This document shows, piece after piece, positions 57,034 through 64,000 of a stretch of 64,000 nucleotides of DNA. The notes beneath the pieces are model-generated. The model saw nothing but the letters and a program-made list of their open reading frames with translations. It did no database searches and was not told the origin of the DNA. The DNA is taken from NCBI GenBank assembly GCA_007132995.1, contig SLNP01000015.1:5329-69328 (forward strand), in the 5' to 3' direction. Numbering within the stretch: position 1 is the stretch's first letter; every line of letters starts with the position of its first letter. Both the position numbers and the translations under genes were made by a program. This stretch comes from Bacteroidales bacterium (GTDB taxonomy: Bacteria; Bacteroidota; Bacteroidia; Bacteroidales; VadinHA17).

Positions 57034-60000
57034 GTGAATCTTACAACATTTTATGCGGCCTCTCTTAAGCCGGGCCCTGTCTATCGCATTTTACCCTCTA
57101 TTATCCTATTTATTACCTCTGCCGCGCTACACGCCGGGGACTATTACTGGGTCGGAGGCTCCGGTAACTGGTCTGATTATGCCTCTCACTGGGCAACCAC
57201 TTCCGGGGGTGATCAACATCACTCAACTCCCCCGACCCGATTCGACAGGGTCTTTTTCGACTCCAACTCATTTGAGAGTGAGGGTGAAACGGTATATATC
57301 GATATTGACGCTGAATGCGCCCTTATGGACTGGACAGGAGTTACCGGCAGTCCCATACTAACCGGATCTTCATCATCTACACTCTCAATATATGGGTCGC
57401 TTACGCTGGTTCAGGATATGGACTACAATTACAATAGTGTTATCTACTTTTTATCATCTCAACCGGGAAACACCATAACCAGTGGCGGCCAGAGGTTCCT
57501 CAGGGATATTCGTTTTGAAGGATCAGGCAGTTACAGACTTGAAGATGACCTCGATATAACGGGCAGAACCATACACCTCAACCTGGGTGGTCTTGACCTC
57601 AACGACGCAGAGGTTGTCGCAGGTCGCTTCCTTAGCAGCAGTGCCACGGTGCGCTCCCTGAATCTGGGCTCTTCTGAAATAACATTGACCTACTCCAGTT
57701 CGCATAGCGGCAACTACGCCATGGCAATTAACGGAGAGAACCTCACTTTCAGCGGCGGGGATTCGCATATCAGGTTTACAGGATCGTTTCCCAGGTTTAT
57801 CAATTCCGGCCTGGGCCTCACCTTTAATACCTTAACAAGCGAATCGCAAACCGGTAACACCAGGATAATGACAACCGCCGGAAGCAGATTCAGCACAGTT
57901 ATAGTGAACAATCAGGGACGCCTGTTGAGTCCGGTCACTGCAGATACAGTTATCTTTAACTCTGAAGGGCATATACAGGGAAGCGGAATTATCGCCGGAT
58001 CTGTTACAGTTACAGGCGATGCCTATGTAAGCGGCAGCAACTGTGAACTGGAACGGCTTGAGATAGGAGGCAACGGTTTCTTCACAGGTAACAACAATAT
58101 ATATGGAACCGTTATTCTCGCGGAAGGGGGCAGATATCTGTTCGAAAACTCTACAACACACACTGTTACAGAACTCTTCTCAGCCATAGGAAGCTGTGCC
58201 GCACCCATACTTTTTGAGGCATCTTCAGCTACAGGTCAGGCAACCATGTCGTTTAACGGCTCTGCGGTCGAAGTCTCCCGAATAACGATGAAGGGTATCG
58301 CAGCAGAGGGAGCAGGTCCCTTTATTGCAGCGGAGTCTGTAGATCTTGGTAACAACAGCGGGTGGACAATTACGCCACCTGCCCCTCAGACCCTCTACTG
58401 GGTCGGAGGAGAGGGCAGCTGGGAGGATGCTTCCAACTGGTCTGCCTCCAGTGGAGGTGAGGGAGGATTTTGCGTTCCGACAAGATACGACCATGTGGTA
58501 TTTGACAACAACTCCTTTACATCGGCCGGTGAGATAGTAACTATAGAGGGTGATCCTGCCGGTAATGCTTATTGCAGGAGTATGGTGTGGTCAGATGTGA
58601 CCGGAGAGCCTGTTTTGGAGAGCCCAACAGGTCGCAATCTTTATATAGACGGCTCCCTGACCCTCACAGAGGGCTTTATGTTCGGCTTCAGGGGTAGCAT
58701 CATATTTACCTCCGGCGAAGAGGGTAACACCATTACCACTGCCGGGCAGTTAATTCAGGGTGACCTGATTTTTGATGCCGCAGGGGGTGGATATCAACTT
58801 ACCGATGATCTGGAGGCCACAGGAACGCTGTTTCTCGAAAACGGGCTGCTGGACCTGAATGGTGCTGAGTTAACATTGCGCCGGTTCATGTCGCAGGGCA
58901 CCGGCGGCACCAGAGAGCTTATTATGGATGACGCGGTAGTCAATATCACCTACTCCAGCTCTCATAGTGGCAACTATGGCTGGAGTGTTAATGGCACCGC
59001 CCTGACCCTTCAGGGTACCAACTCAACAATAAACTTTACCGGATCATTTCCCCGATTCCATACCTCAGGCTCTTCCCTGCAATTTGGGAATGTAACAAGT
59101 CAGAGCAGCTCGGGTAACTTTCGCCTTACCGGCGGAGAGTCCCTCTTCGATACCATATCTGTGGCCAATGGTCAGCTCAGAATCATTTCGGCCGGATATA
59201 TTGAGATGGTTGTTGCCGAGGCAGATGCCTTTTTTCAGGCAGCAGGCGTCGGGGTGGGAGAGGGTCATATCAGTGGTAATGCCACTGTGAGCGCCGCCGG
59301 AGGCACCTATCACAATCTTGTTATAGACGGTAATGCGACACTAAGCGGTGCAGACTCTCACTTTGAGAACCTGGTGCTAAATGGCAGTGCTCTTTTTTCG
59401 GGTACCGGCAACAGCTTCGGAACGGTTCTGTTTAATGAGGGAGGGGTCTTTACCATAAACAGTGGCCTCACCATAACCATTCTTGACGGCCTGACCGGTG
59501 CCGGCAGTTGCGCCAGACCAATAACTGTCGAGTCATCGGCAAGTCCGCAGGCCACCATATACAAAGAAGAGGGTACAGTAATTATGGACAGGGTAACGCT
59601 GCAGGGTATAGAGGCCTCAGGAGGGGCCACTTTTATAGCTACTAATGCAGTAGATGGTGGTAACAACAGTGGCTGGCACGAAATTAGCCCCCCCTCGGTA
59701 CAGACACTCTACTGGGTTGGAGGTGAAGGCGAATGGGAAGATATAGATAACTGGTCATCTGAAAGCGGCGGCGAGGGAGGATATTGTGTCCCTACAAGAT
59801 TTGACAATGTGGTCTTCGACCACAACTCTTTCGACCAGGAGGGTGCGACAGTAACCATAGCGGGCGATGCATCCGGCTCTGCTGTCTGTTACAGTATGGA
59901 TTGGTCTGGTGTGCAGAATAGCCCTGTTTTCAGTGGCAACAGTACACTCTCTCTCAATATTTACGGCTCGCTTATTCTCAGTGAGAATATCGATTTTGAT

Positions 60001-64000: not shown

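Follow-up and report, generated by a model that had tools for sequence, protein, structure and literature searches.

A giant type IX secretion cargo protein of a Bacteroidales bacterium with five predicted beta-solenoid modules, and relatives of the module in phages

The window of DNA analysed here, 64,000 nucleotides (C48:5329-69328) from the 2.32-Mb, 134-contig assembly of an uncultured Bacteroidales bacterium (94.5% complete, 0.04% contamination), ends inside a gene whose reading frame is already extremely long. Frame 1 of the + strand contains no stop from position 57001 to the window end at 64000. What kind of protein does this gene encode, and what does the protein do? The rest of the assembly contig, C48, supplies the missing end. 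The stop codon lies 1025 bases past the window, at window-equivalent 65025, and the complete product has 2663 amino acids. The initial annotation, made from the window sequence alone, had described an open frame and a protein of more than 2300 residues that never terminates in the window, and the extended contig bears out this description. The most probable answer to the second question, held with moderate confidence, is that the protein is a surface-anchored, non-enzymatic binding fibre.

The gene has one possible start in this frame, since GTG 57034 is the sole in-frame ATG, GTG or TTG upstream of the first module. Contig C48 ends 365 bases after the stop codon. The product appears to consist of a Sec signal peptide, five tandem modules, a stalk and a type IX secretion system (T9SS) C-terminal domain (CTD). 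These features are listed below in window coordinates, together with the evidence used to place them. Alignment A1 is the MAFFT alignment of the five modules.

57034-57135, + strand: GTG start codon and predicted Sec signal peptide, residues 1-34 (read from the sequence; homologue signal peptides)
57139-58389, + strand: predicted beta-solenoid module 1, residues 36-452 (alignment A1; 610 bits against the module hidden Markov model)
58390-59703, + strand: predicted beta-solenoid module 2, residues 453-890 (alignment A1; two-module AlphaFold2 model)
59704-61005, + strand: predicted beta-solenoid module 3, residues 891-1324, the module modelled singly (AlphaFold2)
61006-62250, + strand: predicted beta-solenoid module 4, residues 1325-1739 (alignment A1)
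62251-63441, + strand: predicted beta-solenoid module 5, residues 1740-2136 (alignment A1; module tree)
63442-64000, continuing to window-equivalent 64788, + strand: putative stalk of six Cys-bearing units, residues 2137-2585 (contig C48 sequence)
Window-equivalent 64810-65019 (C48:70138-70347), + strand: type A T9SS CTD, residues 2593-2662 (PF18962, TIGR04183)
Window-equivalent 65023-65025, + strand: stop codon (contig C48 sequence)

Export signals and modular architecture

Both ends of the protein carry signals for export. Residues 2593-2662 of the 2663 match TIGR04183 with 40.2 bits (cut-off 23) and PF18962 with 44.1 bits (cut-off 27). Because this type A CTD scores above the curated cut-offs, the giant protein is classified from its sequence as T9SS type A cargo. 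The initial annotation had called the units behind the modules typical of T9SS cargo and had proposed extending the contig to look for a type A or type B CTD; the extension yields a type A domain that both models recognize. The same genome encodes SprA (TIGR04189, 2648 bits) and GldG (TIGR03521, 498.6 bits; window 39485-41143, within the stretch 39446-41149). There are 13 frames with type A CTDs in this genome, of which the giant gene is the largest, with 12 others.

The N-terminus, VNLTTFYAASLKPGPVYRILPSIILFITSAALHA followed by GDYYWVGG, reads by eye as a Sec signal peptide. K12 and R18 lie in its putative n-region, ILPSIILFITSAAL forms the h-region, and cleavage would probably take place between LHA and G, directly ahead of module 1. 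Homologues carry a canonical signal peptide that ends 1-3 residues ahead of the first YWVGG, and in most of 249 relatives the first module begins at residue 20-37. A signal-like N-terminus had been noticed in the window, and the homologues agree with it.

The modules that follow are regularly spaced. Their YWVGG codons lie at 57145, 58396, 59710, 61012 and 62257, with periods of 1251, 1314, 1302 and 1245 bp; the initial annotation had all five positions and all four periods exactly. In alignment A1 the five modules align over 448 columns with 33-44% identity to module 1. Every pair of modules is 33-44% identical as protein and 44-52% identical as codon-aligned DNA. Identical residues are encoded by the same codon in just 34-47% of cases, and no exact DNA match between two modules exceeds 19 nt. 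Because DNA identity is low, codon use has diverged and exact matches are short, the copies appear to be ancient duplications and not an artefact of assembly, as had been argued from the window.

Every one of the five modules closes with G(N/G)N(S/E)GW. The motifs (T/Q)YSSS(H/R/Q)SxNY and FTG(S/T)x(P/V)R, and a Cys ahead of xP(I/V), occur in modules 1-4 only, and alignment A1 confirms the motifs and restrictions that were first read from the letters. Individual modules also have features of their own. Module 1 is a first-position variant without Cys at module position 28, and module 4 has one solenoid turn deleted relative to modules 2 and 3 (a 19-column gap in A1). Module 5, nearest the C-terminal anchor, is a distinct last-position variant in which the late Cys and both the YSSS and the FTGSxPR motif are missing.

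The history of these variants can be followed in a maximum likelihood tree of the modules of six five-module proteins, the giant one and five relatives. Their last modules form one clade with support 100/100. Modules 1-4 mostly cluster within each protein; here they form one clade (99/98) with long branches. These groupings indicate that the last module, nearest the stalk, is probably an old and distinct type, and that the other modules appear to multiply through tandem duplication within lineages or to evolve in concert.

The stretch that separates module 5 from the CTD, beginning at about position 63440, contains six Cys-bearing units of about 75 amino acids each. The initial annotation described Cys-bearing units of Ig or HYR type from about 63430, and this description holds in part. 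The Cys-bearing units are present, and two of them match Ig_7 (PF19081) below its cut-off of 27.3: unit 6 with 21.0 bits (E 4e-4) and unit 3 with 14.4 bits (E 0.048). The HYR assignment did not survive, since PF02494 gives no match at E <= 10 to the six units taken singly and none at E <= 1 to the whole tail. The units are probably Ig-like.

The composition of the protein is unusual. Lys is very scarce, at 9 of 2663 residues (0.3%), and D+E make up 11%. This Lys share is the lowest of about 980 long open reading frames (ORFs) in the genome, whose crude proteome has 4.1% K. The 249 sampled family proteins, with a median of 2.1%, have no lower share either. Modules 1, 2, 3 and 5 account for four of the nine Lys residues, placed about 30-50 residues before the module ends, and those in modules 2, 3 and 5 fall inside an xK(E/A)(E/D)G stretch. 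The Bacteroidota O-glycosylation motif D(S/T)(A/I/L/M/T/V) is not enriched in the giant protein, with 11 sites against 11.5 expected.

Predicted fold and conservation of the module

The fold of the module was predicted from alignment A2, whose 147 modules come from the giant gene and 79 loci in GTDB species genomes. AlphaFold2 models module 3 with a mean predicted local distance difference test (pLDDT) value of 97.7 and a predicted template modelling (pTM) score of 0.93. The model has 43 short strands and no helix of at least four residues. Its strands recur about every 24 residues in the first half and about every 18 in the second. Because it contains only short strands with this regular period, the module is predicted with very high confidence to be an all-beta solenoid, in agreement with the short beta-strand repeats and parallel beta-helix suspected by the initial annotation. 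A model of modules 2 and 3 together, built from the 70-row alignment A3, reaches a pLDDT of 96.3, with at least 94 across the junction, and a pTM of 0.78. The predicted junction between modules suggests a defined arrangement, not a floppy one.

This confident model has no close counterpart among solved structures. When the module 3 model is compared with the PDB by Foldseek, no match reaches E <= 1e-3; the top E value is 5e-3, with template modelling (TM) scores of 0.27-0.35 and root-mean-square deviations of at least 14 A. The top matches are all beta-helices, and the best of these weak matches are the autotransporter passengers Hap, IgA1 protease, Hbp and SepA. Other weak matches are to Ag43, EtpA, two-partner secretion (TPS) domains, an antifreeze solenoid, tailspikes and lyases.

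Profile searches give a similar picture. The module has no significant match in Pfam-A or NCBIfam 20.0, which were scanned with the whole protein, one module and the tail; the CTD alone is significant. The initial annotation could not assign the module to a named domain family, and neither library holds one. Weak Pfam matches of the module are Bactofilin (E 0.081) and the YdcK solenoid (E 0.26). Against PDB sequences the module profile has three weak matches, one of them to an alginate lyase over 67 residues (E 0.007). The N-terminal motif, of the form WxGGxGxWxxxxNW, presumably resembles the starts of autotransporter-associated beta-strand-repeat proteins. In the literature, no paper was found with the 'YWVGG' motif, and nothing specific was found on the T9SS together with a beta-helix.

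Two library entries that might be mistaken for the module were set aside. Topo_VI_alpha (PF20768) scores 27.2 bits (gathering cut-off 23.6) on residues 1773-1790 in module 5 (window 62350-62403), an 18-residue beta-strand stretch, and this match is judged spurious. PF20768 is also precomputed for the giant protein in a public collection and could mislead automatic annotation. PF26689 is precomputed on 4 of 120 homologues; the other 116, and this protein, do not carry it, and it was rejected as a model of the module.

Conservation is concentrated at the two ends of the module, whose length ranges from 323 to 470 amino acids with a median of 366. Of the 55 columns of A2 conserved at 80% or more, 37 fall in module residues 1-135 and 11 in the last 89. 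Residues 136-230 have 5 such columns, and residues 231-345 have 2, at 55% occupancy. The conserved N-terminal part starts with YWVGGxGxWxDxxxWSxxSGG...PTxxDxVxFDxNSF and continues to about position 135. Its conserved columns include W4, G9, W11, D13, H16, W17, S21-G23, P30, D34, D39, N41-F43, C62 and W67. The C-terminal cap has the consensus GGAxFxAxNSxDxGNNxGW.

This distribution of conserved positions bears on whether the modules are enzymes. Polysaccharide-degrading lyases and glycosidases, such as those of the PL1, PL6 or GH28-like families and the depolymerases of phage tailspikes, often have a beta-helix fold, and five of them in one chain could make a multi-catalytic surface depolymerase for feeding on polymers. 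Lyases and tailspikes are indeed among the weak Foldseek matches, the alginate lyase is among the weak profile matches, and phage homologues of the module (see below) are located where depolymerase tailspikes often sit. Many carbohydrate-active enzymes of Bacteroidota leave the cell through the T9SS. However, no Pfam family of beta-helix enzymes matches the module even at E <= 1. The helix body, the usual location of the active site, is nearly devoid of conserved columns and variable in length, and the bodies of the five copies in this protein are just 24-50% identical among themselves. Because the part of the helix in which beta-helix enzymes hold their active sites varies freely, a structural or binding role is favoured over a catalytic one, and we regard the depolymerase as unlikely.

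Relatives in bacteria and phages

Relatives of the module are numerous. Among 1.84 billion cluster representatives (clusters at 50% identity), the A1 profile matches 11,251 proteins at E <= 1e-3, and 3,562 proteins still match at E <= 1e-30. Close relatives are 1300-4000 amino acids long, end in a T9SS tail of type A (PF18962) or of type B (PF13585), and also carry PKD, Ig_7 (PF19081), HYR or SprB-type domains. Where they are named at all, they are named after the tail alone. The 249 sampled relatives mostly have three modules, with a range of 1-13, and the first module follows the signal peptide.

Carriers among the species genomes belong to Bacteroidales, Saprospiraceae, Lewinellaceae, Chitinophagales, Flavobacteriales and Cyclobacteriaceae, with further carriers in Prolixibacteraceae, Lentimicrobiaceae, Kapabacteria and metagenome-assembled genomes (MAGs) of Chlorobiota. 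Among the carriers in culture are Flavilitoribacter nigricans DSM 23189, Portibacter marinus, Ancylomarina salipaludis, an Ekhidna sp. and Chryseobacterium sp. SL1. The taxonomic spread is patchy. At E <= 1e-40 the module is found in 6 of 201 high-quality genomes drawn evenly from the phylum (6 of 109 genera), and at E <= 1e-10 in 13 of 41 genomes around Saprospira. The source genome contains no module-bearing gene other than the giant one. Module contigs of Bacteroidota type (L003, L007/L052, L053) also appear in MAGs labelled Planctomycetota, Clostridia and Bifidobacteriaceae; these contigs are probably mis-binned and not true occurrences.

A passive role can be weighed against this distribution. 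The array might serve as a spacer, a coat or an S-layer-like shield of the outer membrane that has no specific ligand. A very acidic, nearly Lys-free composition would suit a protease-resistant, non-sticky coat, and both the single module-bearing gene in the genome and the lack of partner genes fit with such a part. However, the small number of carriers among the sampled Bacteroidota genera is better explained by an accessory trait than by a basic envelope layer. Moreover, a fast-diversifying solenoid body and module duplication within lineages are typical of interaction surfaces. A purely passive element is rather improbable, if slightly less so than an enzyme.

The module is also found outside bacterial genomes. 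In a Foldseek search of BFVD, nine phage proteins match at E <= 1e-3, the best with E 7e-17, 23% identity and a TM score of 0.50. At least 456 stretches of IMG/VR contigs encode a relative of the module. Among cultured phages, INPHARED has one partial match, a hypothetical protein of Limnohabitans phage DC31. The phage relatives have no match in PHROGs v4.

Statistics for the phage proteins were taken from 80 IMG/VR loci (L087-L166) with 81 module-bearing ORFs. These ORFs encode 231-2945 amino acids and 1-6 copies of the module. In 79 of the 80 phage ORFs whose first match begins at the N-terminal end of the module, the module starts from residue 2-3 (MADRYWVGG; MA[DNT]RYWVGG). Because the module begins so early, these ORFs have no room for a signal peptide and are read as having none.

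Gene context was inspected on two phage contigs. On L090, a single-module ORF of 439 amino acids (L090:7398-8717) lies between a portal gene and a tail-fibre gene, with terminase and head-closure genes nearby. On L137, an ORF of 790 amino acids (L137:7989-10361) follows a virion structural or tail gene. When these two relatives are compared with the module by hhalign, the probability is 99.9-100%, with E values of 1.6e-34 and 2.2e-40 and 32-33% identity, and both caps are conserved.

Bacterial and phage modules differ in their cysteines, which in module 3 are encoded at the following positions.

59785-59787, + strand: Cys28 of module 3 (module alignment position)
59887-59889, + strand: Cys62 of module 3 (module alignment position)
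60811-60813, + strand: Cys370 of module 3 (module alignment position)

Cys28 is present in 83 of 147 bacterial modules and in 0 of 103 phage modules, and Cys370 in 113 of 147 and 0 of 102, respectively. Cys62 occurs in both groups (136 of 147 bacterial and 51 of 104 phage modules). The distribution of Cys28 and Cys370 fits disulfides that would form in exported versions only.

These relatives allow a broader, tentative proposal. The YWVGG-capped beta-solenoid may be an undescribed, autonomous family that uncultured tailed phages use, in 1-6 copies, at the extreme N-terminus of proteins from structural-gene blocks and that Bacteroidota and their relatives use behind a signal peptide, with added cysteines, Ig-like stalks and T9SS CTDs. 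The module could then have been exchanged between phage receptor-binding proteins and bacterial fibres, which might recognize microbial cell-surface glycans for attachment to prey, partners or particles, perhaps as the capture ends of grappling hooks. The patchy spread of the module fits exchange between phages and bacteria. We consider this larger scenario possible but doubtful.

A proposed surface fibre and its comparison with known systems

A plausible course for the giant protein, and the one on which the binding fibre is based, begins with the Sec signal peptide, which would direct it to the periplasm, where it would fold. The type A CTD would be recognized by the T9SS, for which this genome encodes the SprA translocon. 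By analogy with characterized type A cargo, the PorU sortase would then cut off the CTD and the new C-terminus would be linked to anionic lipopolysaccharide. The C-terminus would become the cell-proximal end. From the cell outward, the fibre would consist of a stalk of six disulfide-capable Ig-like units and then the five capped beta-solenoid modules in tandem. If a module has about 17-18 rungs and each rung rises 4.8 A, its length would be about 8-9 nm and that of the helical part about 40 nm; the surface fibre might measure some 40-60 nm.

Each module would fold autonomously, with caps that frame a solenoid body whose sequence and number of turns are free to vary. A non-enzymatic role is most likely for the modules, which would act as rigid spacers with diversifying binding surfaces for particles, polysaccharides or other cells. 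They may be adhesins or glycan-binding modules. The homologous modules encoded in structural-gene regions of the two phage contigs fit the binding of a cell-surface ligand.

Several points weigh against a fibre of this kind. The n-region of the putative signal peptide is unusually long and the start codon is GTG. Type A cargo may be released instead of anchored. The two-module model fails to superpose on long straight beta-helices (TM scores of at most 0.22), so the predicted module array may be kinked instead of forming a straight rod. Finally, the N-terminal cluster of W4, W11, D13, H16, W17, D34, D39 and N41 could be a functional site and not a folding cap.

The genes around the locus bear little on the binding fibre. 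The initial annotation pointed to gldFG in the window and tentatively tied the module to the gliding/T9SS apparatus. GldG is present as described, and the functional connection falls away. The gene lies 16 kb from the giant gene, at a distance that makes its presence in the window uninformative about function, and the interval is filled with unrelated housekeeping genes. Among them are genes for a pyridoxal phosphate-dependent decarboxylase, an M14 peptidase, NfeD, a menaquinone-synthesis protein, adenylosuccinate lyase, an ATP-binding cassette exporter and a penicillin amidase. The genes immediately upstream of the giant gene are housekeeping genes too, and the penicillin amidase gene is divergently oriented. 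No conserved neighbours are found upstream of the giant gene or around the two homologues examined. The loci of these two homologues do have other T9SS cargo genes nearby, along with PorU/PorV or PorZ.

A more specific version of a binding role is that the module array is the capture end of an organelle resembling a grappling hook, modelled on GhpA of Aureispira. In GhpA, itself a T9SS substrate, residues 26-1402 are an adhesin-like N-terminal region that makes up the distal hook on a stem of Ig-like repeats (bioRxiv 10.1101/2024.01.29.577165). The order of parts is identical in the giant protein: signal peptide, N-terminal adhesin-like region, Ig-like repeats and T9SS CTD. The frequency of the module in genomes near Saprospira also suits this idea, as does one relative with a frame of 6642 amino acids, in which about six N-terminal modules are followed by about 4300 amino acids of Ig/HYR repeats. 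However, no chain named GhpA is among the three weak PDB sequence matches of the module profile, nor does any PDB chain of that name match the 6642-aa protein in its stem. There are no PorP/PorE-like genes after the 6642-aa frame or at the homologues examined, and the stalk of the giant protein has just six units. Searches of Saprospira-related genomes for a link to GhpA return candidates of 1472-1717 amino acids that are ordinary family members. Of all the explanations weighed here, this one is the least probable, and we think it very unlikely.

The 6642-aa frame (L168/L169; G035:C1:5830584-5850510, minus strand) comes from a complete 6.0-Mb relative genome and begins with a signal peptide. 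It ends abruptly, and next, in another frame, is an ORF of 535 amino acids with Ig/PKD domains and a type A CTD. The two look like a single gene of about 7000 amino acids split by a frameshift.

The wider importance of the module lies in a gap in annotation. The genes for giant T9SS cargo proteins count among the largest and most poorly understood in environmental Bacteroidota. More than 11,000 protein clusters and hundreds of phage contigs contain the module; Pfam, NCBIfam and PHROGs offer no model for it, and none of its relatives has a solved structure. Because the module has no library model, thousands of proteins are annotated by their sorting tail alone; a family model built from alignment A2 would annotate the module-bearing proteins at once. 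The confident prediction, clean domain limits and cultured carriers should make structural and binding studies straightforward. The phage link opens a way to study the ligands of the fibres, and also any exchange between bacterial adhesins and the receptor-binding proteins of phages.

Among known systems, type V secretion passengers (Hap, IgA1 protease, Hbp, Ag43, EtpA and HMW1) resemble the proposed fibre in presenting an all-beta solenoid as an extended adhesive rod on the surface, and they provide the best, though weak, Foldseek matches. They differ in their export, which uses a beta-barrel translocator or a TpsB partner where the protein studied here has a T9SS CTD. No type V translocator or TPS domain of Pfam is found in the giant protein, and its upstream neighbours are the housekeeping genes described above. 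Type V passengers also form one continuous helix, whereas the giant protein has separately capped modules that match no sequence family.

The beta-helical tailspike and tail-fibre proteins of phages are alike in that homologous modules are encoded within structural-gene blocks, as seen on the two inspected contigs, and a role in the virion is putative. Unlike the bacterial protein, the phage relatives do not have a signal peptide, a CTD, Cys28 or Cys370.

GhpA is similar in the order of its parts, a comparison made by published description and not by sequence. It differs in having 5898 amino acids, 52 Ig-like repeats, assembly into heptamers and PorP/PorE-like neighbours (bioRxiv 10.1101/2024.01.29.577165), none of which is seen for the giant protein.

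The giant protein also corresponds to T9SS type A cargo proteins, such as the large surface adhesins of Bacteroidota. They share with it a Sec signal peptide, a type A CTD that scores above the cut-offs, a very large passenger made of modules, with probably Ig-like units ahead of the CTD, and a host genome with SprA and gliding/T9SS genes. The difference lies in the passenger, which here consists of five copies of a capped beta-solenoid of about 430 amino acids for which domain libraries have no model. A giant T9SS surface fibre with beta-helical repeats is thus a known kind of protein, and there is no evidence of a new mechanism. What is new is a very widespread module that did not turn up in any domain library, solved structure or paper searched, together with its unexpected connection to phages.

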